A stretch of 35,240 nt of DNA from a virus. How positions within the stretch are numbered: position 1 is the stretch's first letter; each line of letters opens with the position of its first letter. Shown here one piece after another: positions 8,256-26,890 of this stretch. The stretch is taken from UHGV virus genome UHGV-0174372, one strand, 5' to 3'. The position numbers were made by a program, and so were the translations under genes. Below the pieces are notes generated by a model. It did not search any database and was not told where the DNA came from. It was given only the letters and a program-made list of their open reading frames with translations.

Positions 8256-9527
8256 ATGGCAAATTTCGCAAAAACTCGCGCCGCTCGTGAATCGATGGAA
8301 GCGGCCGATGAAGTAATCGACGGTATCAGCAACGTTGAACCGGCAGAAGAGAACCTGGACGTCCAACTTGCGGACGTAGCATCTATCGACGGTCAGCTCG
8401 ATCAGCTGGAAACCGACGGTGAAACCCTGGCTGCCGATACCGAGCGTACTGAAGACGCTATCGAACAGGCGGAAGAAGCCGTTGCTAACGGTGAAGAAAT
8501 GCCGGAAGAAGCGGTTGCCCTGCACGAAGTGGCACAGGAATCCATCGCACGTCGTTGGTGCCTGGAACGTACTAAACTGGCTCGCGAATCCTATCGTCGT
8601 GGCCGTGGTATGACTGCTGCTGCCCAGGAAGGTTGGAAAGAAACCCTGAAAGATCTTTACGATCGTTTCATTCAGTTCTGTAAAGAAGTGATTGCGAAGA
8701 TCAAAGACCTGAAACTGAAATATTTCAATGTCGGTAAGACCGCACAGAAACGTGCGAAGAAATATCAGGAAATGCTGCGTAAGCTGGGCAAACAGAAGAA
8801 AGATGAAATCTCTGGTGGCTTTATCACCAAGCTGTCTATCGAAGGTAAATTCGATGCTGCTGGCTCTATCGCTATTGCGAAAGAAGTTACCGCCGGTAAA
8901 GCTAAAGGTTCCATCGGTGCTCTGGAAAAACAAGCTGGTGAAGCTGTGACTGCCGTTACCAAAGGTGACGATGACGCATTCAAGGCAATGCGTGGTGATC
9001 AGCCGGTAGAACTGTTTGGTAAAGCTGCTTCTAAACTGCACACTCTGCCGAACTTTGAAAAAGGCGATGCGTCTAAACTGCTGGCGCTGCCGGGCAACGC
9101 TTACATTCAGGCTGGTACTAAAGAACTGGCTGGCGGTCACAAGTTCACTGCAATCGCGTTCATGAGCACCGGCGACGCTTCTGACGATAAAGACGTGAAA
9201 ACTCCGTCTGTTTCTGAAATGGCTGGCGCTGCTTCTGCTCTGGAAGCGATCGGTAAAGGCTTCGAAGCCGTACTGAAAGATTTCCGTGCCTACGATTCTG
9301 AAATCGTGAAGCTGCAACAGGCTGCTGAGAATGCTGCTAAGGCGCTGAACAACGAAAAAGACGATAGCAAGTGGGATGGCCTGCGTAACGCACGTCAAGC
9401 TGCCGATTGGTCTGTTAAGAACTACCAGACCCTGAACCGCGCAGTTAGCTATGTTGCTAACACCGTTATTAGCGGTCTGAATGGCTACCTGGGTGCTGGT
9501 ATCGGTGCTTACGAAAAATCTAAATAA
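8256..9527 (+). CDS. high-abundance virion protein, paralog A (423 aa); candidate protease-processed internal head protein
   Basis: ATG 8256 with aaggaaa Shine-Dalgarno; strongly biased codon usage (ctg/cgt/ggt/aaa/gaa); N-terminus MANFAKTRAARES; internal AQESIARRW and ARESY; C-terminus GLNGYLGAGIGAYEKSK shared with the next gene. Confidence 0.85.
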   Translation: MANFAKTRAARESMEAADEVIDGISNVEPAEENLDVQLADVASIDGQLDQLETDGETLAADTERTEDAIEQAEEAVANGEEMPEEAVALHEVAQESIARRWCLERTKLARESYRRGRGMTAAAQEGWKETLKDLYDRFIQFCKEVIAKIKDLKLKYFNVGKTAQKRAKKYQEMLRKLGKQKKDEISGGFITKLSIEGKFDAAGSIAIAKEVTAGKAKGSIGALEKQAGEAVTAVTKGDDDAFKAMRGDQPVELFGKAASKLHTLPNFEKGDASKLLALPGNAYIQAGTKELAGGHKFTAIAFMSTGDASDDKDVKTPSVSEMAGAASALEAIGKGFEAVLKDFRAYDSEIVKLQQAAENAAKALNNEKDDSKWDGLRNARQAADWSVKNYQTLNRAVSYVANTVISGLNGYLGAGIGAYEKSK

Positions 9528-9571: not shown

Positions 9572-9592
9572 AGGGGAACGTATTGTTCCCCT
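9572..9592 (+). other. GC hairpin without U-tract between paralog genes (possible attenuator or RNA processing site)
   Basis: 8-bp stem aggggaac/gttcccct with a 5-nt loop, sited in the spacer just upstream of the paralog B ribosome-binding site; no T-run follows. Confidence 0.3.
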
Positions 9593-9609
9593 TAGAGGAA
9601 AAGCTTAAA

Positions 9610-10875
9610 ATGGCGAATTTCTACAAAAACAAAATTGCTCGTGAGTCTATGGAGTCTACTTCTACTGTAGTTCCAGACGGCATCGAACTGCCAGCAGAAT
9701 CCGTAGAAGGCACTCTGGCCGATATCGAGCATGACACCAAACCGATCGAAGCTCTGGACGCTGACGCTGAACTGCTGGCAGAAGACGGTGACGAAACTGA
9801 CGCTCAGCTGGATGTTCTGGACGAAGCTCAGGCTGCTGCTGACGGTGAAGGTGCTGGCGAAGACGGTGAAGAACCGATGGACGCCGAAGAAGATATGCCG
9901 GACGACGCTGCGACTGCGCTGGACGTTGCTCAGGAATCTATCCGTTCTCGTTGGAACTTCGAACACCGTTCTTCTGTTGCTCACGAATCCTACGGTTCTC
10001 GTAACCGTCGTCAGGTTGCTCGTGAATCCCTGTGGGAAGACATCAAAGCCTTCCTGGGCCGTATTCTCGATTGGCTGAAAGAACAAGGCCGCAAACTGAA
10101 AGATCGCTGGCTGAAATTCCACAACCAGGGTAAATCTATTCAGGCACGTGCTAAGAAATACGATGAAGTTATTCGTAAGCTGGGCAAACAGAAGAAAGAT
10201 GAAATCTCTGGTGGTTTCATCAAGTCTCTGTCTATCGACGGCAAGTTCGTCGGTGATAATATTCCGAAACTGAAAGGTATCCTTAACCAGGTCTCCTCGT
10301 TCTATAGCGCTAAGATGCCTGCCATGGCCGCTAAAGCTGCTGAAGTGGTTTCCGATGTTACCAAAGGTAATGGCGTTAAAGTTGAAAAACTGAAAGCCGA
10401 CTTTACCGAACTGTCCAAACAAGACAGTCTCCAAAACTTCAAGCTCGGTAACATGGCGGTGAAAACCGAGTATGACAACGAAGGCGGCTTCAGCTCCACC
10501 TTTGTTGAAGCTGAAAACAGCGTTGAAACTAGCGTGAAAACTCCGTCTGTTGGCGAACTGGCCAAAATCAATGCTCTCTTCAACGAAGTGGGTAAACAGA
10601 TTGAGAAGAACGTTCAGGATTACCGTAAAGTCGAAAGCGCGCGGAAAACCTTTGAAGATAATATCGATAAGCTCCTGAAAGAAGTCGATAAAGTTAAGAT
10701 CGACGAAAAACCGGAACTGACCGAAGGTGTACGTGCTGCCCGTCGTTTCATCACCAGCGTTAACCAGGGTCTGTCTCTGGGTGAGAAGGTTATTGCTTCT
10801 ACTCAGAAACACCTGGCCGGTGGTCTGAATGGCTACCTGGGTGCTGGTATCGGCGCTTACGAAAAATCTAAATAA
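9610..10875 (+). CDS. high-abundance virion protein, paralog B (421 aa)
   Basis: ATG 9610 (the track start at 9583 is a TTG) with gaggaaa Shine-Dalgarno; N-terminus MANFYKNKIARES; AQESIRSRW, AHESY, ARESL; a 41-nt tract identical to paralog A (10174-10214 vs 8778-8818) and a near-identical 54-nt 3' end. Confidence 0.85.
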   Translation: MANFYKNKIARESMESTSTVVPDGIELPAESVEGTLADIEHDTKPIEALDADAELLAEDGDETDAQLDVLDEAQAAADGEGAGEDGEEPMDAEEDMPDDAATALDVAQESIRSRWNFEHRSSVAHESYGSRNRRQVARESLWEDIKAFLGRILDWLKEQGRKLKDRWLKFHNQGKSIQARAKKYDEVIRKLGKQKKDEISGGFIKSLSIDGKFVGDNIPKLKGILNQVSSFYSAKMPAMAAKAAEVVSDVTKGNGVKVEKLKADFTELSKQDSLQNFKLGNMAVKTEYDNEGGFSSTFVEAENSVETSVKTPSVGELAKINALFNEVGKQIEKNVQDYRKVESARKTFEDNIDKLLKEVDKVKIDEKPELTEGVRAARRFITSVNQGLSLGEKVIASTQKHLAGGLNGYLGAGIGAYEKSK

Positions 10876-10893
10876 TCCCTGATTGTTTAGTAA

Positions 10894-10940
10894 GAGAACC
10901 ACCCTGTAATGGGGTGGTTCTCTCTTTTCTTTTTTTTTCG
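10894..10940 (+). terminator. intrinsic terminator
   Basis: 11-bp stem gagaaccaccc/gggtggttctc followed by a long T-run (ttttctttttttttcg). Confidence 0.7.
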
Positions 10941-10950
10941 ATTAAAATAA

Positions 10951-10978
10951 TTTTCAGATATATATTACCTAGGTGAGA
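10951..10978 (+). promoter_or_regulatory. candidate phage early promoter (TATATTAC core), copy 1
   Basis: ttttcagatatatattacctaggtgaga; a 27-nt tract identical to 19206-19232, placed just after a terminator and about 50 nt upstream of the next ATG. Confidence 0.45.
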
Positions 10979-11028
10979 ATACTGTGTAATCTCTTTACGA
11001 CTTGTTTATTACGTTTAGGAGAAATATC

Positions 11029-11670
11029 ATGAGCCGCATTAATTTAACCGATTTTGTTGATGGTGTTGTGTCTATGGATAAAGGTGTCGTTACGATGGTG
11101 GCACCGAATAGTAAAGTTGTTACTTTAAATCCGGTAGAACTGATTTCTATTTCTACCTGGTTGCGCTTACTTTCTGGTAAGAAACCTAAAGACCAAGCGA
11201 AGGGTGGCTTATTAGTTGGTACACGTGAGTTTGTTTTCAAAGACATAACCCAAGATAAACTGGACAGCATTGCTAAAGAACTGAACGGCAAGCATAAAAC
11301 TCGCGACATCGGGAGTGCCGAACATGACGGTGTAACGTACCATGCATTTCTTGATAGTCACGTAGCATTGCGTGAAAAAGAAAATGGGTTGTACGAATCA
11401 GTTAGTTTCTTTCATTTAATCGCACCAACAGAAAACGAAGCTGTGTATGAAACCGTTGAAAAATCGGCGGAAGCTGTTATGGAAACGGTGTCAGAACTTA
11501 TAGAAGGGATGAAAAGAATCCCACGTGTGTTGAAAGTTACTGATGGGGCTTTCGATTGTTTTAAATTATTACCCCTAATAGCTAGTAAAGAATACGAAGA
11601 TGAGAACACCTTCGGACTATTCGAAATTAGTCTTTCGGAAGCAGTTGTTACTTTCTTTGAAGATTTATGA
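11029..11670 (+). CDS. hypothetical early protein (213 aa)
   Basis: ATG 11029 with aggag at 7-nt spacing (the track start at 11002 is a TTG); more AT-rich codon usage than the structural genes; followed by a terminator. Confidence 0.75.
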   Translation: MSRINLTDFVDGVVSMDKGVVTMVAPNSKVVTLNPVELISISTWLRLLSGKKPKDQAKGGLLVGTREFVFKDITQDKLDSIAKELNGKHKTRDIGSAEHDGVTYHAFLDSHVALREKENGLYESVSFFHLIAPTENEAVYETVEKSAEAVMETVSELIEGMKRIPRVLKVTDGAFDCFKLLPLIASKEYEDENTFGLFEISLSEAVVTFFEDL

Positions 11671-11674
11671 GATA

Positions 11675-11705
11675 AAAACCCTCTACGGAGGGTTTTATTT
11701 TTTCG
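11675..11705 (+). terminator. intrinsic terminator
   Basis: Stem aaccctc/gagggtt with tacg loop followed by ttattttttcg. Confidence 0.6.
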
Positions 11706-11723
11706 ACCTTTAGGAGAATAGAA

Positions 11724-12275
11724 ATGAACAAATTTAATATTTTAGACGCTGAAGTCGTATCTGAAACCAGTTTACAGCAGGAAATCTTTCGCATTCAGTT
11801 TGGCGATAAAACCCTTATCGTCCCACGCCCGGTAATGATTGGACTGGCTATTTTTATTAACTGTGCGCATTGTAATGGTTCTCAACTCTCCACGCTCACT
11901 TACAACAATTACGAATTCTATATTCCGGAACACCTGGAATATAATCGCTTCATTGCTTTACGCCCGTTCTACAAGTTTATGTTAGACGCAGGTTATTCTA
12001 CACTGACGAAAACGTACATTCGTGATTATTCGAAGCTGGAAACGTTCTATCGTCGTCGCGGTTATCGTGTTCCTGAGCCTATTGACGGTTTTCAAACACG
12101 CGTTGTATTACTTAAACCGCTAGAAAAAGAACTGGCTTGCTATAAACTTGATATTGAGCAGAAGTTACTGCGTGAGGATTTGTTGAATTTATACAATCAG
12201 CTTTCAGTTGTACCGAAAGCCACAGTAGAAAACATTCTACCTGATTACGGAATTAGACAATATCAGGAAGGTTAA
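11724..12275 (+). CDS. hypothetical early protein (183 aa)
   Basis: ATG 11724 preceded by taggagaa. Confidence 0.75.
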   Translation: MNKFNILDAEVVSETSLQQEIFRIQFGDKTLIVPRPVMIGLAIFINCAHCNGSQLSTLTYNNYEFYIPEHLEYNRFIALRPFYKFMLDAGYSTLTKTYIRDYSKLETFYRRRGYRVPEPIDGFQTRVVLLKPLEKELACYKLDIEQKLLREDLLNLYNQLSVVPKATVENILPDYGIRQYQEG

Positions 12276-12276
12276 A

Positions 12277-12582
12277 ATGAAACTCAAAGCCGATGCGATA
12301 TGTGTTGTTAAGTTGCCGGAAAGTAATGTGGTGTACTGCGTAAAACGGCTAGACATTCGATTACTGATACCGAGACTTAATGAACCTGGTTGGAATGGGG
12401 ATTTGATGATTCCACTGATCAGGCCACTCCCTACGAACGATGGCAATATAACGCATTTGCATATGGAAGCCAAAGGGCGGTACATCACCGTTTATCATTT
12501 AGCCGATCAGTACAAAACGACCCGGTATACCCGAAAAGATTTTATACGCCATTTAAGAGGCTCACTGGAGATAAAGAAATGA
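12277..12582 (+). CDS. hypothetical protein (101 aa)
   Basis: ATG 12277 with aggaagg Shine-Dalgarno, 1 nt after the previous stop; its TGA overlaps the DHFR start (ATGA). Confidence 0.6.
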   Translation: MKLKADAICVVKLPESNVVYCVKRLDIRLLIPRLNEPGWNGDLMIPLIRPLPTNDGNITHLHMEAKGRYITVYHLADQYKTTRYTRKDFIRHLRGSLEIKK

Positions 12583-13115
12583 CAATTACAGTTTCGATGA
12601 TAGCTGCTGCTGGGTTGAATAACGAAATTGGGAAAGACAATAAACTGCCGTGGCGTATTCCCGATGACTTAAAGAATTTTAAGGCTCTTACGTCAGGTAA
12701 AGTTATTGTGATGGGAAGCAAGACATGGGAATCGTTAGGGTTTAAACCCCTGCCTAATCGTCACCATGTCGTGTTGACGAGAAGACCTGGTGGTGTGCCT
12801 GAAATCGATGGGGTGCTTAACCTTAAGGGTGAAATGGGGTCGATTATTGAATTCCTCAAAACCGAGGTTGAGAAAAAGGGTTATCCTAAGGAAATCTTTA
12901 TTATCGGCGGCGCAGAAATTTACCATCAGGCGTTACCTTACGTGGATAAGATTTACTTGTCACGCGTAGAAGTTAAAGTCGATGGTGCAGATGCGTTCTT
13001 TCCTGAAATCGATCGTAACAAGTTTAGACTGGTTTATAACTTAACGCACGCTTCCAAACCGGATAGTGATGTTCCACGTTGGCATTATCAGATTTGGAAA
13101 AGAGATGGGCACTGA
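12579..13115 (+). CDS. folA: dihydrofolate reductase (178 aa)
   Basis: Translation carries the DHFR fingerprints as I recall them from E. coli FolA: MIAAAG..IG..LPW..P.DL..FK near the N-terminus, VIMGSKTWESLG, PLPNR, IIGGAEIY and YLS..EVKVDGDAFFP. GGAG lies 8 nt upstream of ATG 12579. Confidence 0.9.
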   Translation: MTITVSMIAAAGLNNEIGKDNKLPWRIPDDLKNFKALTSGKVIVMGSKTWESLGFKPLPNRHHVVLTRRPGGVPEIDGVLNLKGEMGSIIEFLKTEVEKKGYPKEIFIIGGAEIYHQALPYVDKIYLSRVEVKVDGADAFFPEIDRNKFRLVYNLTHASKPDSDVPRWHYQIWKRDGH

Positions 13116-13401
13116 GTTTGTAACCTTAGAAAAGCTCTTTTTAGGTAGAGTTGCGAAAGGGAAAATAGCGCGCTTCACCTGGTATCCTTCCTCTGTAAAG
13201 CACGCCTTTATACGTCGTTTACATCAAGAGAAAAGCGTCAGGTTGATCTTGATAGTGTTGTTTGAAAACAACCGTGGACTGTTGATTAACAATCAGCGTT
13301 TTGCGGCAGAGATTTGGGCAACCACCTCTGGGGGCGAGGAAGCGTCTGTTGGCTTCGCTAACGACGAGATTATCTTTGAAGGTATACCTTATCTGTTATA
13401 G
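13105..13401 (+). CDS. hypothetical protein (98 aa), start uncertain
   Basis: ATG 13105 preceded by ggaaaagag; overlaps the last 11 nt of DHFR; ends at TAG 13399-13401 just before a terminator. Confidence 0.45.
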   Translation: MGTEFVTLEKLFLGRVAKGKIARFTWYPSSVKHAFIRRLHQEKSVRLILIVLFENNRGLLINNQRFAAEIWATTSGGEEASVGFANDEIIFEGIPYLL

Positions 13402-13414
13402 GTAGGATAAACGT

Positions 13415-13450
13415 AAAAGGGGACTTCGGTTCCCTTTTATTTTTTTTTCA
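13415..13450 (+). terminator. intrinsic terminator
   Basis: Stem aaaaggggac/gttccctttt (one G-U pair) with ttcg loop, followed by a T-run of at least nine. Confidence 0.7.
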
Positions 13451-13490
13451 TTTCGCGCCTGTGATATGACTATAACGAAGGAACAAGCCA

Positions 13491-14999
13491 ATGCAACAGT
13501 ATTTTGAAATTCCGTCGTTAGACGCGACCATTCGCAAACCAATAATCGATGGTGTTATACAACGTGTACTTAATGAGTCTGGTATTGATACAGCAGCGGT
13601 TGTTTTCCTCGATGAATTCAATAGCGCCCATCAGCCGGATTCTACTTTAGGTGATGGTACAGAAGTAGAGTACAGTTCACCTGAAAAGGTTTACGTTGAA
13701 GTAGAAGAAGAACGTGATGAGTGGGCAAGAATCAACCGTCAGGTTGGTCAGCAGGCTGAACCGTACTTCTTCGAGAATTCCGTCGATCAGGTACGCGCCT
13801 GGCCCGTTAGAACGATGTATAACGTAACGGTAACGTTACGACGTACCAGTGCCTCACGTGATGAGTTATTGCGCTGGACAAACCGTTTAGACTCGTTAGT
13901 GGACATGGGTCGTTATTCGACCATGACAGAGTCAGAAGCGTTCTATTATATCCCTAAACCCGCGTTAAAGTTGTTGAATGCCTGCTACGTTGCTGCAGGA
14001 ACACGAGTACCAGCGTTTGACGATTTTAAAGCCTATTTGAAAGCGTATTTTACGCCCGACGTATTTCGTGCGGCCAATGTTGCCGGGGGGCAGGAAACCA
14101 TTGCGGTACGTTACGCACCTACGCGTTTAGAAACGGTATATGACGTTCAAACACCGGCCTGGGATAAAGATGAAAACCACTGGGAAGCAACGTTCGTTAT
14201 TCGTTTCTCTTATCAGCGCCCTGAAGAGATTGTGGTTTCGTATCCGTATATCATCAATCAGACACCACTGCCTGATGAATATTGGCCAGAGATAGACCCA
14301 CCGTGGGTATCTAACGAAGAACTGGTGTATCGTCATCCGCAACAAAAGAATCTCGATTCAACCTGGTGGATTAACGAAACTCGTCAGTATATTCGTCTCC
14401 CGTATTTGTTATCTCCCACGGAACAGTTCCATCGTACGCACTCCCCGTTTAAAGATAAACTCTTACCGATTTTCGGTACAGATGTTGTTTTTGAACCGGA
14501 CAACATGTTATCGCCGAAGGTGATGTCTACGGAAGATTTACCTTACGAATGGAACGAAGCGTTGCTACCGTATATCGAACATTGTCGTGCGATCGACCCG
14601 ACAGGACAGACGGGCGTTTTCCGTATCGAGTTGTTCGAAGAGGGGCAGATTATCGAACCGCGTTTCTACCATTGGGAAGGAAATACGTTTTCGCTTAAAG
14701 GTCGTGACCTGAAAGTAAATAAGGGTTATTACTTAACCGAGTCGGTCATGTTTGACTGGCGTGGAATGAACCTCTGGCCATTACAGTTATATCCGCAGGC
14801 AGCGAAAGTATTAATTGAGTGGTTGTTCCCGAAATGGGACGTTCCTGATTGGTGGTGGGATAAGCCGGTGTTACCGCCGAGTGTTATCGATGACATTAAT
14901 AAACTGATTCCGAACGTAGAAGCCCGTGTGTTATTGACGGTGCTGAACTCGACCATTATTACCATGCGAGGAACAGAGAATGCTCAAAGCAAAGCGTGA
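13491..14999 (+). CDS. hypothetical phage protein (502 aa), probably structural
   Basis: ATG 13491 with aagga at 8-nt spacing; long ORF. Confidence 0.8.
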   Translation: MQQYFEIPSLDATIRKPIIDGVIQRVLNESGIDTAAVVFLDEFNSAHQPDSTLGDGTEVEYSSPEKVYVEVEEERDEWARINRQVGQQAEPYFFENSVDQVRAWPVRTMYNVTVTLRRTSASRDELLRWTNRLDSLVDMGRYSTMTESEAFYYIPKPALKLLNACYVAAGTRVPAFDDFKAYLKAYFTPDVFRAANVAGGQETIAVRYAPTRLETVYDVQTPAWDKDENHWEATFVIRFSYQRPEEIVVSYPYIINQTPLPDEYWPEIDPPWVSNEELVYRHPQQKNLDSTWWINETRQYIRLPYLLSPTEQFHRTHSPFKDKLLPIFGTDVVFEPDNMLSPKVMSTEDLPYEWNEALLPYIEHCRAIDPTGQTGVFRIELFEEGQIIEPRFYHWEGNTFSLKGRDLKVNKGYYLTESVMFDWRGMNLWPLQLYPQAAKVLIEWLFPKWDVPDWWWDKPVLPPSVIDDINKLIPNVEARVLLTVLNSTIITMRGTENAQSKA

Positions 15000-16350
15000 T
15001 AAACCGTCTTCTTTCGAACCGGTGGAACGCCCGATACCTGAGTTGAATAAACCGCAAGACGGTGTGAAGGAAACCACGAACGTGGTGACACAACCGACAC
15101 GTACAACGGTGACGGATTTAGAGCGTATACCGAAACAGTATCTGATGAAGTACCTGGAAGGGTCTTCCTGGACAGTGGATTTCTTTAATTTCCTGAAAGG
15201 GCGTAACGACGCGAAGAAATTCTTCGATTCGAAGGTACTTACACCTGACCAGCAAGTAGAGAAAATCATCGGGTTAGAATTGCGTGTCACCACGCCGTTA
15301 GATCGTTCTCAGGACACGACAAACAAAACATTCACCATGTCCGGTGCCGCAACAATGGCGAACTCGGTGATTCCCAACGAAGGGTGTTTTTTCGTTGCAC
15401 CGATTGGAGACGGACGGTTCGCGTTGTTCAACGTCACGAACGTTGTGCGGATGTCCAATAACAAAATTGCAACGTATAACATTGAGTATACATTGCTGTT
15501 TGAAGTTGATCCAGAAGTTGCAGAAACCATTCGTCGTTGTACGGTTCGTGAGTATTATTACGTTTCTGAACGTGCCTGGACGGGCGGTGATACGTTACTG
15601 ACACCGAAAGAATACCGTGCGTTTTTGAAGGTCGTTGATGCGATTGCGGATATTGAACAGACTTACGTAAAACGGTTTTACGATGGGGAAACGGCAACGT
15701 TGCTTTTCCCGCACGATCGTCACAGCGATGGGTTGCGTGGTCGCGCGTACTACGATGTGTTCTTAGCACAGTTTGTACGTTCTGTAGGCTTACGCACCGT
15801 TGGTAAAGATATTCAAATTTATCCGCATCCACCAATGCGTGTGGAGGATATTGAAACGGTCTGGACAGCGTTGTTAAATCAATCGCCAACGTTCTTAGCG
15901 GATTACAAACGTGATTCCAGTGTCTGGCAGGTAAAAACCTTCCGTACGATGCAGCATCGAAATTCTGTGACCTGGTCATTAATTTCGGATACCCGATTCT
16001 TTACCGATGAATTAAAACCGGGCTATGGGATGGCGCAACGTTTCCCTGGACAGTGGCCGAAGTGGACGGAGTTTGAACCGGTTGAAGTGGAGAACTATCG
16101 GGGTAATGAAGGTGAATCAATCCCTGCATTTCTACCACTGACTTACGAACCGTATTTGTTAAGCCCAACGTTCTACGAGGGCTCGTACAGTTCGTTATTA
16201 GAATACGGTTTATATCTCTATCTGAATAAACGCCCACTGTCAACGGTAATTGCATTACGGTTGTTTGAAGAAGTTTACCGTTTGCCGAAGGATGCGCAAT
16301 TCTATTACATTCCGATGGTGTATTTGTTGTTACGGTATGCGAGGGATTAA
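14980..16350 (+). CDS. hypothetical phage protein (456 aa)
   Basis: ATG 14980 with gaggaa Shine-Dalgarno; overlaps the previous gene by 20 nt. Confidence 0.8.
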   Translation: MLKAKRDKPSSFEPVERPIPELNKPQDGVKETTNVVTQPTRTTVTDLERIPKQYLMKYLEGSSWTVDFFNFLKGRNDAKKFFDSKVLTPDQQVEKIIGLELRVTTPLDRSQDTTNKTFTMSGAATMANSVIPNEGCFFVAPIGDGRFALFNVTNVVRMSNNKIATYNIEYTLLFEVDPEVAETIRRCTVREYYYVSERAWTGGDTLLTPKEYRAFLKVVDAIADIEQTYVKRFYDGETATLLFPHDRHSDGLRGRAYYDVFLAQFVRSVGLRTVGKDIQIYPHPPMRVEDIETVWTALLNQSPTFLADYKRDSSVWQVKTFRTMQHRNSVTWSLISDTRFFTDELKPGYGMAQRFPGQWPKWTEFEPVEVENYRGNEGESIPAFLPLTYEPYLLSPTFYEGSYSSLLEYGLYLYLNKRPLSTVIALRLFEEVYRLPKDAQFYYIPMVYLLLRYARD

Positions 16351-16351
16351 C

Positions 16352-16891
16352 GTGGCTGAAAAACGTAGCGCAGCATTTATGCTGTTTCACAAGTGGGTGG
16401 GATGGCGTGTCCCTGAATGGACGACGATTTCAACGTACATGTCTCAGGAACATGGATTGTTCTTACCGGAAGACGAGAAAAAAGCACGCGCGATACTGCT
16501 TAATAAAAAGACTGTATACATGCGACCTTTCGAAGTTGCGGTTTATGCAGAATCGGGCGCGGCGTTAGACGTCCACGACCCACATGACGGGATCATCGTG
16601 TACGGGTATATCATGGAACACTTAGCTGATTGGCTAAATTACATGCAGACCCCACACCTGACAACACGTAAAGTCCCTATGGAGGGCTTGCGTCAGTTTA
16701 ATGCGTTAGCGCGTAAACTGTTCCCGGTAGCGAACCGTTACGGTTACTTTAAGAAACCTGAAGTAACAATGGCGGTTTCCGTACAAGCGTTATTTGGCGA
16801 AGTCCGGTTGGAAACAGAACGGCATCAGTTCAACGATACGATTATGCACCGTATTGAACAGATATACCGTAGACGTGGAGGAATTCTGTAA
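16352..16891 (+). CDS. hypothetical phage protein (about 179 aa); GTG start inferred
   Basis: GTG 16352 lies 6 nt after gaggga and 1 nt after the upstream stop; the first in-frame ATG (16379) has no Shine-Dalgarno. The track ORF is open from 16250. Confidence 0.55.
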   Translation: MAEKRSAAFMLFHKWVGWRVPEWTTISTYMSQEHGLFLPEDEKKARAILLNKKTVYMRPFEVAVYAESGAALDVHDPHDGIIVYGYIMEHLADWLNYMQTPHLTTRKVPMEGLRQFNALARKLFPVANRYGYFKKPEVTMAVSVQALFGEVRLETERHQFNDTIMHRIEQIYRRRGGIL

Positions 16892-18210
16892 TGTCGTTTG
16901 GTCGGTTACAGAACATAGCAAACGTGCACATTGCACAAGCGGCGGGATTACCGGCCATCGACTACGTACCCCTTATCACGGTTCGTGGGGTGACGATTGA
17001 CGTTTACAAAACCATGTCGATAATCCATGCCAGTAATTTCGCTCAGGATTTAACGACCATCACGCACCTCAGTGTGGTGATTCCACTGAGCCAGCAACGT
17101 ATTCTTACGTCGTCGGCAGAAGGGGATTTATCAGTTAAAATCCTGATGCGGACAATGAACAAGAAAACCGTAGCGCAACTGAACTACCGAGGAATTGTGG
17201 TTAACAACCACGATCCTGATATGGAATCACCTACAATGTTTTTGGGTGAATCTGACCAAAAAGGGTTGGGTGTGGTAACGTTGGAACTGATGGATGAATC
17301 GATGTGGTTCCTTCGTTGTCGTCAGGTAGGTGGGATTTACCACGAAACAGATGGATTAAGTGTCGTTCGTGCATTACTTGCTGACACATTACCTACCGGG
17401 GATGCACCAGAAGGTCAGTTGGTTGGTGTGGAATACGAGGAAGAAGAACAACAGCCTTATCGTGACATTTTGATTCCCGATTCGCAAAGTTTTCTTTCGG
17501 TTTTCGATTTCATTCAGAACCGCTACGGTGTGTATAGTCAAGGATTAGGTGTCTTCCTGTATAAACACCGTTGGCATATCTTTCAACCGTGGGATTCTAA
17601 GAAATTCTCTACGGCAAAAAAGAAACTGGTGGTGATTAACCTTCCCAGAGAGAAAGTTGCCTATTTAGATAAAACGTGTCACATTGCAGGTGACGTCATT
17701 TATCTGATTTGTGGTGGCGATGTTCACACCTTCGAAGACAAAGACGCCCTCGCGTTAAATCAGGGAACGGGTTATCGCGTGGGTTCAATCCGTGCCTTAG
17801 ATGGACGTGCAAGTTCTTTCTCTCCAGGCGACGTTTCAGCAACGACGTCAGATTCGTTTGTTTCGGCAGCAGACCCTACACAGTACCCCGGTGGTGTTGT
17901 TAATGCACCTATTGATCCAAACGAGCACTTCAGCGACACGGATAAACCTCGTCGTTCTAAGTTGGCTGCCGCCAGAGGGACACTGACCGCAACGACCTGG
18001 AACCGTTCAGCGTACGGTTTATTGCAGCCGGGTATGGCAGTAAAATATCTGTATGCGAATAATTACGGTGTATACACTCGTTATGGGACGTTGGTTGGTG
18101 AAGTTTTCCAAGCTGCCGTTGACGGTGGTTCGATGGCGTCCCCACAATTTAATACCATTAGTCAATTGACGTTGTGGTTGACTAATGAAAAATTTACAAC
18201 CGCTACGTAA
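16891..18210 (+). CDS. hypothetical phage protein (439 aa), possible virion protein
   Basis: ATG overlaps the upstream TAA (TAATG); contains LGES and SAEG motifs. Confidence 0.8.
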   Translation: MSFGRLQNIANVHIAQAAGLPAIDYVPLITVRGVTIDVYKTMSIIHASNFAQDLTTITHLSVVIPLSQQRILTSSAEGDLSVKILMRTMNKKTVAQLNYRGIVVNNHDPDMESPTMFLGESDQKGLGVVTLELMDESMWFLRCRQVGGIYHETDGLSVVRALLADTLPTGDAPEGQLVGVEYEEEEQQPYRDILIPDSQSFLSVFDFIQNRYGVYSQGLGVFLYKHRWHIFQPWDSKKFSTAKKKLVVINLPREKVAYLDKTCHIAGDVIYLICGGDVHTFEDKDALALNQGTGYRVGSIRALDGRASSFSPGDVSATTSDSFVSAADPTQYPGGVVNAPIDPNEHFSDTDKPRRSKLAAARGTLTATTWNRSAYGLLQPGMAVKYLYANNYGVYTRYGTLVGEVFQAAVDGGSMASPQFNTISQLTLWLTNEKFTTAT

Positions 18211-18242
18211 ATTATGTCGTCCGTAACCTAAAGGATTTGTTA

Positions 18243-19043
18243 ATGAGTAATCTACTTACTTTCAGAATGTCTGGCCAAACGTTAATCCAAATCGACAAGT
18301 TCGAAGAAGAGAATTTTTCGAAACCGTCGAAGTTGTTAGAACGTTGCCTTAATGTTATTCCTGGTGGTGAACAACGCCAGTTGGATTACATCATGGCGTC
18401 CAGTGCTGACAAAACGATTTCTGTTATTTATACCGTAGACGGTGTACAGAATTGTCGCTTATTACCAATCGAAGAAAAAGGGACGTTAGGTCATTTGTTG
18501 TTCCTGCACGCGATCACAACTGCCGTGGTGTCTGGTGCTTTAGAAGCGCAATACGGCTTTGCTTATTGTTACTTCTATGCTCAGAAATTAGCTGCAGCGG
18601 TTATTCCAGGGCAACAAGAAACCTATCCTCAGTATATTGAACGTATTCTACCCTCACACTTTAGTGAGTCGGAAGACTATGACTTCAATGCGTTTCGTTT
18701 TACCGTAGTGGGTGAAGCCCGCGATCCTGAATATACCACGGCGGTGCGTGCGGTGGTGCGCTATTCTGTTATTTCTACAGACAGTGGCACATCAAATAAC
18801 TTTAATGAAGTGTACCCGGTCTTGCAGTTAGGTCCTTATGTGACCTTCAACAGCTATGTACCTTTCAGTTGCCAGCTTGTGGGTCCGCAGGATAACGATT
18901 CTATTCTCCCTGTTGCGGAAGAAAAGTCATTGTTTATTCGCGAATCCGTAGAGGCTATTAGCGATAAGCGCTTTATGATTTCTTCGAAGACGGGCATTAG
19001 CGATCCTGAAATCGCTGTAATGGATAAGATGCAAGGTCTGTAA
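18243..19043 (+). CDS. hypothetical phage protein (266 aa)
   Basis: ATG 18243 with aaagga at about 7-nt spacing (the track start at 18237 is a TTG). Confidence 0.75.
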   Translation: MSNLLTFRMSGQTLIQIDKFEEENFSKPSKLLERCLNVIPGGEQRQLDYIMASSADKTISVIYTVDGVQNCRLLPIEEKGTLGHLLFLHAITTAVVSGALEAQYGFAYCYFYAQKLAAAVIPGQQETYPQYIERILPSHFSESEDYDFNAFRFTVVGEARDPEYTTAVRAVVRYSVISTDSGTSNNFNEVYPVLQLGPYVTFNSYVPFSCQLVGPQDNDSILPVAEEKSLFIRESVEAISDKRFMISSKTGISDPEIAVMDKMQGL

Positions 19044-19049
19044 AAACTT

Positions 19050-19090
19050 CCCGTTACCTCTGTGGGTAACGGGAATACCTTTTATTTATC
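19050..19090 (+). terminator. probable intrinsic terminator
   Basis: 9-bp stem cccgttacc/ggtaacggg followed by T-rich aataccttttatttat. Confidence 0.55.
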
Positions 19091-19205
19091 CCTAAACGCC
19101 ACACAGAAGTCATTTCTCCATTAAGACGACTAATTACCCTTCAAAAAGAAAATTGCGTCAGAATGCGTTTTAGAGCGTTCTAGAGGGTATATGGATTCAA
19201 AAAGA

Positions 19206-19232
19206 TTTCAGATATATATTACCTAGGTGAGA
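19206..19232 (+). promoter_or_regulatory. candidate phage early promoter (TATATTAC core), copy 2
   Basis: tttcagatatatattacctaggtgaga, identical to 10952-10978; 47 nt upstream of ATG 19279. Confidence 0.45.
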
Positions 19233-19278
19233 GTTTACGTAATACTCATTTATCGAATACCTAATTAGGAGTTATATC

Positions 19279-19392
19279 ATGATTTCTGTAAAACACAAAA
19301 AAGCTATCTTCGCTGTTGTTATCGCTGTTGTTCTGGGTTGCCTGTACCTGGATATCGACAAAGGCTACGACACTTGCATCGACAACGGTAAT
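19279..19392 (+). CDS. small membrane peptide (37 aa), not in ORF track
   Basis: aggag lies 7 nt upstream of ATG 19279. Hand translation gives MISVKHKKAIFAVVIAVVLGCLYLDIDKGYDTCIRQR: a basic N-terminus then a 16-residue hydrophobic helix. Flanked by the promoter-like element and a terminator. Confidence 0.4.
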
Positions 19393-19430
19393 TCCGTTGC
19401 ACAGTGCACTGGTCGTGGTTAATGTATAAG

Positions 19431-19460
19431 GCACCTTCGGGTGCCCTTAATTTTTTTATT
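19431..19460 (+). terminator. intrinsic terminator
   Basis: Stem ggcacc/ggtgcc with a tight loop, followed by cttaatttttttatt. Confidence 0.6.
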
Positions 19461-19476
19461 AATTGGAGCATAAAAG

Positions 19477-20292
19477 ATGATTACTATTAAAGATTATTTT
19501 CCGCGTGGGCTGAGCAATGAAAACTTCGTTCCAACTGAAGACATTGCCATCGTTGCAGAGTCTAACGATAAGTCTTTTAAACTCTACTTGAGTACGGCAG
19601 CAGGAAAATCCACTCTTATTCTTCGCGAACCTGAAGTGATAAGCATCTGCTCGTTTGGGGGCGGTGTAGAAGGAACGATTAATTGGTTGAAATCCAGAAT
19701 GCATCGTTTACTTATCGTGAACACCGATCCTACGATTCGATTACAGCAATTGAAATCGTTGAATGAAGTTATCGTCGGATTATTGGAACACGAAACGTTC
19801 GGTAATGCTGAGATTGCGGAAGCGATTAAATCTGTAGAACTAATCGAGTGGAGTGATATCGAATACGAACGTGCTGCGTTATTCGCAATGCATGGTGACG
19901 ATAATCCCGTTGTGTTTGCACAAACGTTGGATAATGTTACGGTAACGGCGCGCGTATTGTTTGGTTTACAGCGTGTTGAGTTTGAACTGAAACACGTTTA
20001 TGTAAGTAATACTCCAGAGATGGTGGAAACGTTGACTCGTGCGTTCGCTTACCCATTAGACGGAGAATGGGAACAGCAGATTAATGAAGCGTTAGGCGCA
20101 ATGCTGTTCTTAGCAGGCACACTAAGGAAAGAAGAGAAATTAGAAGGTCGTGTTTATCCAGAATACGATTTTGTTTGTGAAGAATGTGGAACACAGTACC
20201 AAATACGTGTTCCTTTAACCGGCCTGACAATCCCGAGAGCCAACGTGGAATGTAAGGAATGTGGCCATGTTCAATACGTAGCGACTAAATAA
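19477..20292 (+). CDS. hypothetical protein (271 aa) with C-terminal CxxC...CxxC zinc-ribbon-like motif
   Basis: ATG 19477 with GGAG at 8-nt spacing; the C-terminus reads ...FVCEECGTQYQIRVPLTGLTIPRANVECKECGHVQYVATK. Confidence 0.8.
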   Translation: MITIKDYFPRGLSNENFVPTEDIAIVAESNDKSFKLYLSTAAGKSTLILREPEVISICSFGGGVEGTINWLKSRMHRLLIVNTDPTIRLQQLKSLNEVIVGLLEHETFGNAEIAEAIKSVELIEWSDIEYERAALFAMHGDDNPVVFAQTLDNVTVTARVLFGLQRVEFELKHVYVSNTPEMVETLTRAFAYPLDGEWEQQINEALGAMLFLAGTLRKEEKLEGRVYPEYDFVCEECGTQYQIRVPLTGLTIPRANVECKECGHVQYVATK

Positions 20293-20298
20293 AAGCAA

Positions 20299-20340
20299 CC
20301 CCTAATCCTTTTCGGGATTAGGGGTACACTTTATTTATTT
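20299..20340 (+). terminator. intrinsic terminator
   Basis: 10-bp stem cccctaatcc/gggattagggg with ttttc loop, followed by tacactttatttattttcg. Confidence 0.7.
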
Positions 20341-20433: not shown

Positions 20434-20469
20434 ATAAAATAAAGGGGTGTGACAGCACCCCTTATCAAA

Positions 20470-20556
20470 GCTTTAACTTTTCGAAAAGAGAAGTTAAAGC
20501 AGGGTACGCTGGTGCTACAGCGTACCCTTTACAACACCACTACGTTTCCGTAGTGG
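20470..20556 (+). other. cluster of three consecutive perfect hairpins (candidate structured RNA or regulatory element)
   Basis: gctttaactt/aagttaaagc (10 bp), agggtacgctg/cagcgtaccct (11 bp) and ccactacg/cgtagtgg (8 bp) back to back, ending about 30 nt before ATG 20590. Confidence 0.35.
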
Positions 20557-20589
20557 ATTTCTTTAATCACCCTACAAAGAGGGCTTACC

Positions 20590-20763
20590 ATGAACAATGG
20601 TTACTACTTTACCGACAAAATGCTTGCAGAACAGAGTGCAGCAAAGACCAATTTACAGCAACGTATCTACAAGTATAGTCAGCTCGGCATGGATAAACGG
20701 TTAAAACCGTCTACCAACCGTTTCACGCAGATATTCACTGAAAAGAGGAGTGAACACTACTAA
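20590..20763 (+). CDS. small hypothetical protein (57 aa), ORF-a; not in ORF track
   Basis: ATG 20590 with aagaggg about 6 nt upstream. Translation MNNGYYFTDKMLAEQSAAKTNLQQRIYKYSQLGMDKRLKPSTNRFTQIFTEKRSEHY shares the pattern QQRIYKYSQLG / NQRMDEYVRLG with the next small ORF. Confidence 0.45.
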   Translation: MNNGYYFTDKMLAEQSAAKTNLQQRIYKYSQLGMDKRLKPSTNRFTQIFTEKRSEHY

Positions 20764-20843
20764 CAAATAAAGGAGAGGCGTGTCAGCGCCTCTCCTCCTC
20801 GTACAGTAACCTGCCGAGATGGTGGTCGTAGGTATAATAAAAA

Positions 20844-20958
20844 AGGGGGTGGTGAAGCACCCCTTTTCATAGCTTTAACTTTTCCAAAGAGAAGTTAAAG
20901 CAGTAGAGACTGGCGAAACAGTCTCTACTGTACGGTGTCAACACATAAAGTTGTTGAC
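20844..20958 (+). other. second hairpin cluster (variant copy of 20443-20556)
   Basis: ggggtg/cacccc hairpin with T-run, then gctttaactt/aagttaaagc, gtagagactg/cagtctctac (10 bp) and gtcaaca/tgttgac (7 bp), all before ATG 20990. Confidence 0.35.
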
Positions 20959-20989
20959 GTTTTTTACAACATTACGAAAGGTAATGAAA

Positions 20990-21151
20990 ATGAACGATTA
21001 TCAAATACAGCTGTTCAATACCGCGATGCGAAATCGTGAAAAACAAATTCAGTTTAACCAACGCATGGACGAATATGTTCGTCTCGGCCTCGTTGCGGCA
21101 CCGAAAACGGTTAACAACCACAATATTCACCAACCACCTGTAAGGAGGTAA
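20990..21151 (+). CDS. small hypothetical protein (53 aa), ORF-b, diverged paralog of ORF-a
   Basis: ATG 20990 with gaaagg at 8-nt spacing (the track start at 20951 is a TTG). Translation MNDYQIQLFNTAMRNREKQIQFNQRMDEYVRLGLVAAPKTVNNHNIHQPPVRR. Confidence 0.45.
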   Translation: MNDYQIQLFNTAMRNREKQIQFNQRMDEYVRLGLVAAPKTVNNHNIHQPPVRR

Positions 21152-21291
21152 GTTACTAACTAATAAAGGGGGTGTCGCCACACCCCCTACTTAGTTCAGT
21201 AGTTATCTTCCGTTCATAATTAATAAGCCTTCTGTTTTTTTGCTTTTCGGGACGCATAAGGGGTCGTAGGGGGAGCCGAAGCTCCCCAGAC

Positions 21292-25714: not shown

Positions 25715-25752
25715 GTCTAAGCCCTTCGGGGCTTAGACCTTTTATTTTTTTC
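25715..25752 (+). terminator. intrinsic terminator
   Basis: 10-bp stem gtctaagccc/gggcttagac with ttcg loop, followed by cttttattttttt. Confidence 0.75.
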
Positions 25753-25817
25753 TTTCTATTATTTTTTGGATAGATATTATTAAAGGGAGACGGCCAGTTG
25801 GTTTTAAAGGAGTATGT

Positions 25818-25868
25818 ATGGAAAAAATACAGTTTAAACTAAAGATATGTGTCATCATTAAAATTTAG
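25818..25868 (+). CDS. possible 16-codon upstream ORF or leader peptide (MEKIQFKLKICVIIKI)
   Basis: aaaggag lies 5 nt upstream of ATG 25818; its TAG ends 11 nt before ATG 25880, which has no obvious Shine-Dalgarno of its own. Confidence 0.25.
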   Translation: MEKIQFKLKICVIIKI

Positions 25869-25879
25869 CTTGGGTTCCC

Positions 25880-26890
25880 ATGAAACGTCTTGATATTGAT
25901 GTGGTGCCCAGTATCTCTGAACGCTCGTTATGTCAAACGTCTGGATTGAGGAAACTTGTTACGTTTGAAAATAACACTGGCGTGCCTATCCACGTCACTG
26001 AAACCAGTGGCGGTAGCTTTATTTTAAATGCCTCGAAAAACCCCGCTGATGAGCATGGGGTTATCGTTTACGTGACGTATCAATCATACGGAAGATGCGC
26101 GAATCTCAATGGGTTTGCTGAACTGATGCCGGGAAAACAGTTTTCTCGCTTTTGCGACCAATTGAAAGAAAAAGGGGAGGTAACGTTAGAGTATGCAGTA
26201 AACGATGTTGGTGCGTTGCTGCGAGGAGATTTAGTTGTACTAAAGCAATTAGGCTTTGCTTTCTCAACAACACCGATACGCTTAGATAGTAAACCCCCAA
26301 CTATGCGCCCTGGAGGTGAGCGCACTGAATTTACATTGGGTGTTGTTGTTGTGCAACGCTACGACGAGCCTGACAATTATCGGTGGCTACGTTTCTACGG
26401 TACGAAAATGAAAATCGAACCAATAACGTCACGCTATTATGAACCGGGCGTTTACATGATAATAGGAGGTGGAACGAGGGTGGAAGGGAGTCGAATGATT
26501 CATTTTGAATTTGACGACATTACCTCACCGTTTAGATTATTTAAGGATGAGGCAGCGGCGGACGCGTTTCGATGGCAAGAAGCAGTTCCCGGCCTCTTTG
26601 AGATTAAGCAACGTTTAGAGGAGCAGTACAAAGAAAAATTAGAAAGCTTGGATTCGGCAAAAGACAAGCTGGAATTGGAACACAAGAAACAACTACAGAG
26701 CATGGCTTTAGAAAAGGAGCGATTGACTTTAGCATTCAAGCAACAGGAATTGGAAGCGAAGTCACGGGCTGAGGCGCGTAAAGAATTCTACGAGACGCGT
26801 TCTTACATTCGTAAGGACGGCTCAGACCTATTTAAATCTGTCCCTGCGTATTTGGCGGCGGGTGTCGCATTTATAGGGATGCTAACGTAA
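25880..26890 (+). CDS. hypothetical protein (336 aa) with coiled-coil region and C-terminal hydrophobic anchor
   Basis: ATG 25880; E/K/L-rich heptad-like stretch (..EQYKEKLESLDSAKDKLELEHKKQLQSMALEKERLTLAFKQQELEAKSRAEARKE..); the last 16 residues VPAYLAAGVAFIGMLT are hydrophobic. Confidence 0.75.
   Translation: MKRLDIDVVPSISERSLCQTSGLRKLVTFENNTGVPIHVTETSGGSFILNASKNPADEHGVIVYVTYQSYGRCANLNGFAELMPGKQFSRFCDQLKEKGEVTLEYAVNDVGALLRGDLVVLKQLGFAFSTTPIRLDSKPPTMRPGGERTEFTLGVVVVQRYDEPDNYRWLRFYGTKMKIEPITSRYYEPGVYMIIGGGTRVEGSRMIHFEFDDITSPFRLFKDEAAADAFRWQEAVPGLFEIKQRLEEQYKEKLESLDSAKDKLELEHKKQLQSMALEKERLTLAFKQQELEAKSRAEARKEFYETRSYIRKDGSDLFKSVPAYLAAGVAFIGMLT

Follow-up and report, generated by a model that had tools for sequence, protein, structure and literature searches.

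Two identical 27-bp A/T-rich sequences in the virus genome UHGV-0174372 raise the question whether they are promoters, by which polymerase they would be read and which genes they would serve. The stretch of this genome analysed here, referred to as the window, comprises 35,240 nucleotides. The repeat TTTCAGATATATATTACCTAGGTGAGA is present in it as an exact 27-mer on the + strand at 10952-10978 and again at 19206-19232, as the original prediction had stated. Very probably, the two repeats are the cores of two early-class promoters of the phiKZ-like type (Chimalliviridae), which in phiKZ is read by a virion RNA polymerase (RNAP). They are designated P1 and P2 in the following.

Anatomy of the repeats and their match to jumbo-phage early promoters

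Apart from the two copies, no match to TTTCAGATATATATTACCTAGGTGAGA with up to three mismatches was found in the window, and none of 100 shuffled sequences contained any match. The likeness of the two copies reaches 39 nt at 90% identity (10940-10978 versus 19194-19232). Each copy includes the 8-mer TATATTAC, which occurs in the window only at 10961-10968 and 19215-19222. This bare 8-mer is not significant alone, since 0.94 occurrences are expected and two or more were obtained in 24 of 100 shuffles; the long exact repeat is the non-random part. Each promoter covers about 36 bp and is composed of an A/T-rich block ending in TTTCA, followed by GATATATATTAC, CTAGGT and a G. In P1 the upstream block GATTAAAATAATTTTCA extends from 10940 to 10956 and corresponds to the TBYAWWWWWTTTCA part of the consensus from the phages OBP and N1M2. 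The core GATATATATTACCTAGGTG, which belongs to the TATATTAC subclass (class A), follows at 10957-10975. In P2 the block GATTCAAAAAGATTTCA at 19194-19210 precedes the same 19-bp class A core at 19211-19229. Both A/T-rich tracts have counterparts in the TBYAWWWWWTTTCARR and WTTTRARR parts of published consensuses.

Between the end of the element and the start codon lie 50 nt for copy 1 (ATG 11029) and 46 nt for copy 2 (ATG 19279), which agrees with the predicted distance of 47 to 51 nt when counted to the A. AGGAG and ATG stand behind both copies, in the Shine-Dalgarno contexts TTAGGAGAAATATCATG and TTAGGAGTTATATCATG. Each copy had also been described as following a terminator. Terminator-like hairpins are indeed located upstream of both, on the + strand: one with a 14-bp stem and a T-run at 10893-10923, which ends the internal-head-protein gene 9583-10875, and one at 19048-19075, which ends the gene 18237-19043. 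The latter lies 130 nt upstream of copy 2 and is not adjacent to it.

According to a review, all jumbo phages that encode an RNAP have a conserved A/T-rich motif of about 10 nt, centred near -10, ahead of their presumed early operons, and where transcripts were profiled this motif proved to be the early promoter (PMC7598289). Predicted promoters are available for phiKZ (TATATTAC), 201phi2-1 (TTAWTAVAA_HYWTTTRARR_BTATATTACDWHDGTG), OBP (BSHAWWWWWTTTYARRYAKATATTATYWWADTG) and N1M2 (TBYAWWWWWTTTCARRYAKATATTATYWAAGTGWA, 31 sites) (PMC7058600 Table 2). For AR9 the early promoter was mapped by differential RNA sequencing as AAATATATATTAT-(6N)-G+1, and the same paper places the starts of phiKZ and phiR1-37 6 nt past the consensus (PMC5312081). 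The early motif of phiKZ, with 28-32 sites, is attributed to a multisubunit RNAP which the virion carries and injects together with the DNA. According to the literature, phiKZ develops independently of the host RNAP. The middle motif TACT (centred about 22-24 nt upstream) and the late motif TATG of phiKZ are distinct from it.

The window element, GATTAAAATAATTTTCA-GA-TA-T-ATATTA-C-C-T-A-G-GTG-A, is in register with the consensuses of phiKZ, 201phi2-1, OBP and N1M2 and fits the AR9 rule. The phiKZ consensus TATATTAC, which the original prediction had given, is in print (PMC7058600 Table 2) and was also seen directly in phiKZ DNA. The first 50 kb of phiKZ contain seven forward TATATTAC sites, all of them intergenic, with TTTAAR-N3 before and N5-T-G after the core. 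A G 6 nt past the core is a sequence feature of all 39 unique class A sites, of 19 sites of the second subclass (class B, core GATAGATATTATCT) and of all seven phiKZ sites. From homology with the mapped promoters of phiKZ, phiR1-37 and AR9 we infer transcription starts at G10975 and G19229, which would give leaders of 54 and 50 nt.

With phiKZ the window promoters share the identical 8-bp core, T-G at the sixth and seventh positions downstream with the G six nucleotides after the core, and TTTAA or TTTCA about 3-5 nt upstream. They are likewise intergenic, co-oriented and often placed after terminators. In both phages a dihydrofolate reductase (DHFR) gene is part of a promoter-proximal early-type cluster, in phiKZ the first annotated gene cluster. 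The predicted promoters in the clade of the window differ from those of phiKZ in a longer and stricter conserved block (19-27 nt invariant), in a fixed spacer CYTAGGT between core and start and in a conserved leader hairpin that is absent from most phiKZ sites. The promoter of 201phi2-1 has the A/T-rich block, TTTRARR, TATATTAC, four N and GTG in the same register, but the phage is of another genus and host, and the C in TTTCA and the C after TATATTAC in the window fall outside its degenerate code. The OBP/N1M2 motif (TTTCARRYAKATATTATYWAAGTGWA) is matched almost base for base by the class B sites of the window and of Salmonella phage SPN3US (GATAGATATTATCTnnGTG), and its prefix TTTCA-GA-TA is common to class A as well. 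A single motif was reported for OBP and N1M2, whereas in the window clade cores of the OBP type and of the phiKZ type occur in one genome, with different leaders. AR9 shares ATATATATTA and the G start 6 nt after the block; it differs by its uracil-containing genome, in not being a nucleus-forming chimallivirus and in the last core position, which is T and not C. The window promoters are thus further members of a known promoter family, as expected for the phage family, and the presence of the motif in every RNAP-encoding jumbo phage has already been stated in the literature.

Early genes of many phages are transcribed by the host polymerase, and TATATT, which agrees with TATAAT at five of six positions, could be taken for the -10 box of a host sigma-70 promoter with the A/T-rich upstream region as an UP-like element. 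Infections by RSL2 and RSF1 are rifampicin-sensitive according to the AR9 paper (PMC5312081). A scan with the sigma-70 consensus, however, reports neither site, and the region is not enriched in such sites (19 found, 27 expected). The sequence 17 bp upstream, TCGATT, matches TTGACA at three of six positions, which leaves the elements without a -35/-10 pair. Conservation is strongest at positions outside those recognised by sigma-70 (CCTAGGTG), and no base of the 19-mer varies between genera. Moreover, the homologous phiKZ motif is the virion-RNAP early promoter in the literature, and phiKZ is independent of the host RNAP. Early reading of these sites by the host RNAP is therefore highly improbable.

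The source of the window is consistent with a promoter for a virion RNAP. In a megablast search the DNA relatives of the window were Salmonella SPN3US-like and Erwinia jumbo phages at about 72% identity, and none closer than this was found by that search. The window shares 98% identity with the uncultivated contig IMGVR_UViG_3300029126_000001 (225 kb) and 96% with a second contig. The gene order of the window is that of SPN3US gp48-gp81: virion proteins, two paralogous internal-head proteins, P1, small genes and DHFR and the head genes (gp61-65 homologs) are followed by P2, small genes, a helicase on the other strand, the major capsid protein and homologs of gp76-78. The protein encoded at 26901-28676, equivalent to SPN3US gp77, is a homolog of PHIKZ123, a subunit of the solved phiKZ non-virion RNAP (E = 1.1e-17). 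The 98%-identical contig encodes a homolog of SPN3US gp241, an annotated RNAP beta subunit, with 76% identity, and RNAP-like proteins of SPN3US were placed in the virion by the literature. The window thus belongs to a phiKZ-type phage with split, virion and non-virion, multisubunit polymerases.

The element is widespread among related phages. Exact copies of the 19-mer GATATATATTACCTAGGTG were found in 25 IMG/VR loci, with three to five per genome in several genomes of 220-245 kb, SPN3US among these. The one-base variant ...ACTTAGGTG is present in 20 more loci, one of which is a third site elsewhere in the near-identical relative of the window. With a 57-nt query around P2, 293 places in 65 cultured phage records were matched (Salmonella 33, Erwinia 24, Escherichia 4 including Goslar, Pseudomonas 2). 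Among the matches listed, most have no annotated feature beneath, and none of the cultured-phage records listed annotates the element as a promoter. In SPN3US an identical core stands at both orthologous positions, at 56295 ahead of gp55 and at 65414 ahead of gp66; the counterparts of G10975 and G19229 are G56313 and G65432 there. When the P2 regions of six genomes are aligned, the core does not vary, while the columns of the whole alignment average 62% identity.

A weight matrix was built from 14 SPN3US sites and scanned over the SPN3US genome and the window. In SPN3US it revealed 23 sites on the + strand with scores of at least 17.8 and a single match on the - strand (11.2), at about zero in shuffled genomes. 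Except for the site at 25227, which lies inside gp30, all + strand sites (22 of 23) are intergenic and located 40-150 nt upstream of a + strand gene, so that the element is present in many copies co-oriented with downstream operons. The window contains exactly three sites in 35 kb, at 19211 (score 54.6), 10957 (49.8) and 25769 (27.8). Confinement of the motif to the two repeats had been named in advance as an observation that would speak against early promoters; the motif is in fact multi-copy and stands at orthologous positions in SPN3US-like and Erwinia jumbo phages. The predicted early promoters are strongly conserved across phages of Salmonella, Erwinia, Escherichia and Proteus.

Short, nearly identical repeats scattered through intergenic DNA could also be something other than promoters, namely a recombination hotspot, the scar of a homing or mobile element, a replication or packaging signal or a part of the upstream terminators. 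Against this stand the orientation of the SPN3US matches, 23 of 24 being co-oriented with a downstream + strand gene and most of them followed by Shine-Dalgarno sequence and ATG at about 30-100 nt, and the conservation of orthologous positions across genera. Neither flanking target duplications nor associated mobile genes were found, and the elements match no Rfam family or tRNA. We consider a function of this sort scarcely credible and regard early promoters as the appropriate reading.

Searches by pattern alone proved treacherous. The relaxed pattern ATATATTACNTAGGTG was rejected: at least dozens of matches in viral contigs were listed, most of them unrelated coding sequence (...FEDIYYVGEVK...) in small marine-phage contigs. 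Within this coding sequence GATATATATTACGTAGGTGAAGT recurs in dozens of small marine viral contigs (IMG/VR); it has nothing to do with the promoter and easily misleads searches of this kind. A palindromic protein site at ACCTAGGT was rejected as well, since the common variant CTTAGGTG breaks the palindrome. Literature matches to the bare strings TATATTAC or TATATTACC were unrelated papers.

Subclasses of the predicted promoters and the genes behind them

The sites of SPN3US fall into two subclasses which share the frame GATA-ATATTA-N6/7-G. Class A, GATATATATTACYTAGGTG, comprises seven sites of the phiKZ/201phi2-1 type, and class B, GATAGATATTATCTnnGTG, comprises 16 sites of the OBP/N1M2 type. 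P1 and P2 belong to class A. The third site of the window, GATAGATATTATTAAAGGG at 25769-25787 on the + strand, is of the GATAGATATTATCT subclass, with a predicted start at G25787 and without an anchored hairpin of the class A type. It is orthologous to the SPN3US site 72487, just after the capsid gene. The degenerate third copy that the original prediction had placed at about 25768-25782 is hence a real site, but a member of a distinct subclass.

Upstream of this class B site, a terminator-like hairpin (25715-25738) comes after the gene for the major capsid protein (23405-25699). Directly behind the site, a 16-aa open reading frame (ORF; MEKIQFKLKICVIIKI) with its own Shine-Dalgarno sequence is located at 25818-25868, ahead of the genes 25880-26890 (phrog_7286) and 26901-28676 (the PHIKZ123 homolog), all on the + strand. 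An analogous short, unannotated, ATG-initiated frame is found in SPN3US at about 72540, after the 72487 site; a second class B site of SPN3US, at 72685, is absent from the window. The 25769 site probably drives the operon that holds the non-virion RNAP subunit gene. In SPN3US, class B sites precede gp22/gp23, gp34/gp35 and gp76/gp77, of which gp23, gp34 and gp35 carry RNAP subunit annotations. Judged by size and by its place ahead of a gene for an RNAP subunit, gp22 may be the counterpart of PHIKZ054. Class A sites are followed by small genes without assigned function, the DHFR operon and a gene for a putative transcriptional regulator. As far as positions go, location upstream of non-virion RNAP genes was seen for class B, and location upstream of small genes and DHFR for class A.

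The coexistence of both subclasses in one genome, together with leaders that are long and carry a hairpin in one case and are short without hairpin in the other, might suggest that either the TATATTAC or the GATAGATATTATCT type is a middle promoter read by a non-virion or modified polymerase, as phiKZ possesses separate early, middle and late motifs. We think this improbable. Class B precedes genes for subunits of the non-virion RNAP, and since this polymerase cannot make its own first transcripts, class B would have to be read by something that is already there when the DNA is injected, as the virion enzyme would be. The exact phiKZ early core is found in class A, and class B is the OBP/N1M2 motif that was assigned to early operons. 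The middle (TACT) and late (TATG) motifs of phiKZ look different from the frame common to both subclasses. An early role for both is thus preferred.

The genes behind P1 constitute a likely early unit from 11029 to 13401 on the + strand, in synteny with SPN3US gp55-gp59. It includes a 213-aa protein without family assignment (11029-11670), the genes phrog_12369 (11724-12275) and phrog_9893 (12277-12582), DHFR (12579-13115; PF00186, 8.7e-46) and a last gene for 98 aa without assigned function (13105-13401). A weak terminator-like site lies within it at 11675-11696. A terminator-like hairpin with nine T at 13413-13440 is the probable end, so that the unit most likely covers 11029-13401 and is closed before the head genes. 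The region 13491-19043 encodes homologs of SPN3US gp61-gp65, with two annotated virion structural proteins; gp61, gp62 and gp64 have roles in head assembly (PMC7411985). These genes are probably outside the early unit.

Behind P2, the gene at 19279-19422 on the + strand encodes a hydrophobic peptide (phrog_8574) homologous to SPN3US gp66. It has 47 aa, which corrects the predicted 37-aa membrane peptide, and is followed by a terminator-like hairpin at 19430-19445. Its N-terminal hydrophobic segment ends in VLGC and resembles a lipoprotein signal (lipobox). The next gene, 19477-20292 on the same strand, encodes a 271-aa protein with a C-terminal CxxC...CxxC zinc-ribbon-like motif, for which Pfam zinc-ribbon matches are below the curated cut-offs, and is followed by a terminator-like hairpin at 20298-20325. 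Both terminators lie between P2 and the small-ORF array at 20590-21151, which has no family site of its own. Early status had been proposed for all of these genes; 11029-13401 and 19279-20292 are likely early units, and the array lacks support from the motif.

A hairpin at the predicted 5' end of class A transcripts

Class A leaders carry an inverted repeat that begins at or next to the predicted start. At P1 the hairpin GAGAAUAC-UGU-GUAAUCUC extends from 10975 to 10993 on the + strand, with one A.A mismatch and -4.3 kcal/mol. P2 shows a weak hairpin from +3, GAGU...ACUC around UUACGUAA, at 19231-19247 on the + strand (-2.7 kcal/mol). The minimum-free-energy fold of +1 to +32 pairs from the predicted +1 in 27 of 31 unique class A sites, with a mean of -5.6 kcal/mol and a mean z of -2.1. 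Uninterrupted stems anchored at +1 to +3 have a mean length of 6.35 bp, compared with 3.80 bp in shuffles (maximum 4.68 in 300), and 21 of the 31 reach at least 6 bp. Class B sites possess background stems only (3.9-4.3 bp).

The ungapped MAFFT alignment left the 3' arms out of register; anchored stems were therefore counted per sequence, and a covariance-model alignment of 41 distinct sequences was used for covariation. Compensatory pair changes are present at stem levels 3, 4, 5, 7 and 8, as illustrated by the arms GAGAUUAC/GUAAUCUC, GAUAGA/UCUAUC, GAACUUGC/GUAAGUUU, GAGCGUUA/UAACGCUU and GAGCAUUGA/UCAAUGCUU. The covariation score is 0.291, compared with 0.192 +/- 0.022 in shuffles, none of 500 of which reached 0.291; when the 3' partner was slid by 1-3 columns, the score did not exceed 0.192.

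Stem-loops of the ompA type at the 5' end stabilise mRNAs in E. coli, where zero to two unpaired 5' nucleotides hinder the 5'-end-dependent action of RNase E and RppH. The class A hairpin likewise leaves no more than two nucleotides unpaired at the predicted 5' end; it differs from the ompA type in its short, A/U-rich stems (mean -5.6 kcal/mol) and in that the 5' end is a prediction. By this analogy, the likeliest of the roles considered for the class A hairpin would be that of a 5'-terminal stem-loop which shields early mRNAs from 5'-end-dependent decay by host RNases, a role to which we give slightly less than an even chance.

The inverted repeat might instead act as DNA, either as an operator at which a phage protein would switch off early transcription or as an extruded hairpin that aids the polymerase. 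The promoter of coliphage N4 is a DNA hairpin upstream of the start with a 5-7 bp stem and a 3-nt loop, read by a single-subunit virion RNAP. Half-sites AGATTA/TAATCT or AGAGTTA/TAACTCT are common to many copies, and the inversion of the P1 loop relative to the 96-98%-identical relatives suggests that the DNA can form a hairpin. The use of hairpin promoters by the N4 virion RNAP is described in PMC4496689. The repeats here do not match that promoter, as they lie past the core and the predicted start, have loops of 3-7 nt and are accompanied by genes for multisubunit RNAPs. Stem sequences such as GAUAGA/UCUAUC, GAACUUGC/GUAAGUUU and GAGCAUUGA/UCAAUGCUU diverge widely while pairing is kept, and the variable loops point to a structure and not to a sequence-specific site for a dimer. 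At stem level 1, 18 of 29 sites have G.U, which pairs in RNA but would leave a mismatch in the opposite DNA strand. An RNA structure is thus favoured over a protein operator by the abundance of G.U pairs and the variable loops, and a function at the DNA level appears unlikely.

Several points weigh against the promoter reading as a whole or against parts of it. The literature reached contains no measured start, timing or polymerase dependence for SPN3US-like phages, and the +1 positions are assigned by homology of the motif register. A predicted AR9 early promoter with a single mismatch was silent (PMC5312081), so that a sequence match is no guarantee of activity, above all where the match is weakest, at the class B site 25769. 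The virion RNAP genes lie outside the window; they are documented only for SPN3US and for the contig with 98% identity. The structure-guided alignment is imperfect, with 66.5% of its cells paired, and the two hairpins of the window are weaker than the family mean (-4.3 and -2.7 versus -5.6 kcal/mol). Most phiKZ leaders have no such hairpin, and its role is therefore not a general requirement of the promoter class.

Among the seven TATATTAC sites of phiKZ, only the one before PHIKZ054 (45568-45648) possesses a strong hairpin at the predicted +1 (-8.8 kcal/mol). Within the P1 hairpin, 4 of 19 positions (at 10979-10987) differ from the 96-98%-identical relatives L004 and L019, at a background divergence of 2%. 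The loop sequence CACAG is replaced by its reverse complement CTGTG (TTACACAGTAA versus ATACTGTGTAA), and the change looks like an inversion of the hairpin loop plus one stem mismatch. Many class A leaders also contain a box (A)ATCGACTAT between the hairpin and the Shine-Dalgarno sequence. In SPN3US, 6 of 25 forward copies of CGACTAT fall into the 0.86% of the genome that lies up to 90 nt downstream of predicted starts; the versions in the window are degenerate (CGACTT at 10998-11003 and ATCGAAT at 19252-19258). Nothing was found in the whole window with Rfam at the gathering threshold or with a tRNA scan. To our knowledge, a promoter-linked 5' RNA module has not been described for chimalliviruses, and the two coexisting core subclasses with different leaders, the class-A-specific hairpin at +1 and the CGACTAT leader box may be new.

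Neighbouring features and the proposed early programme

Some further features of the window are located next to the promoters. Upstream of P2 only, a conserved block on the + strand at 19140-19190 (GCGTcagaatGCGTtttagaGCGTtctagagGGT) consists of direct repeats of about 10 nt. Three of these, cagaatGCGTT, ttagaGCGTT and ctagagGGTa, stand between the terminator and P2. Several columns of the block are invariant in six genomes (the window, SPN3US and Erwinia-type phages), and it is absent upstream of P1. It could be a binding array for a regulator. Upstream of P1, the genes 8256-9527 and 9583-10875 are tandem paralogs, homologous to SPN3US gp53 and gp54. Their last 56 nt, stop codon included, are 98% identical, and in the record of a related Erwinia phage the homolog is called a phiKZ-like internal head protein. 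Downstream of the P2 genes, a unit of about 400 bp is repeated two and a half times across the region 20436-21190, and every unit contains several strong hairpins, for example GGGGTG...CACCCC, GCTTTAACTT...AAGTTAAAGC and AGGGTACGCTG...CAGCGTACCCT. The short ORFs 20590-20763 and 20951-21151, similar in size, lie between the hairpin clusters. No match to Rfam, tRNA or the promoter family was found in this region.

As a working model, the injected virion RNAP would read P1 and P2 and initiate at G10975 and G19229. The P1 transcript would encode three proteins without known function, DHFR and one small protein and would stop at 13413-13440. The transcript from P2 would encode the 47-aa hydrophobic peptide and, after partial read-through of the terminator, the zinc-ribbon-like protein. 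From the class B site at 25769 the operon with the non-virion RNAP subunit gene would be transcribed. In the TATATTAC subclass, the first 17-21 transcribed bases would fold from +1 and thereby protect the early mRNAs.

More tentatively, and on balance rather doubtfully, SPN3US-like and Erwinia jumbo phages may run two distinct virion-polymerase programmes from the two promoter subclasses, TATATTAC with the leader module and GATAGATATTATCT with a short leader. If this is true, the leader module, a hairpin at +1 joined in many copies by the CGACTAT box, would single out some of the immediate-early mRNAs, mainly those for small proteins without known function, for survival or handling in the host cytoplasm; the module could protect from RNase E and RppH or aid the exit from the early infection vesicle. 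The GATAGATATTATCT subclass would then drive short-leader mRNAs for the genes of the nuclear shell and the non-virion polymerase. SPN3US can be grown in culture and is amenable to genetics, and its orthologous sites have the same 19-mer. For an uncultivated SPN3US-like jumbo phage, the elements allow the annotation of early units, and they flag the small genes of 11029-13401 and 19279-20292 as candidate factors of host takeover.

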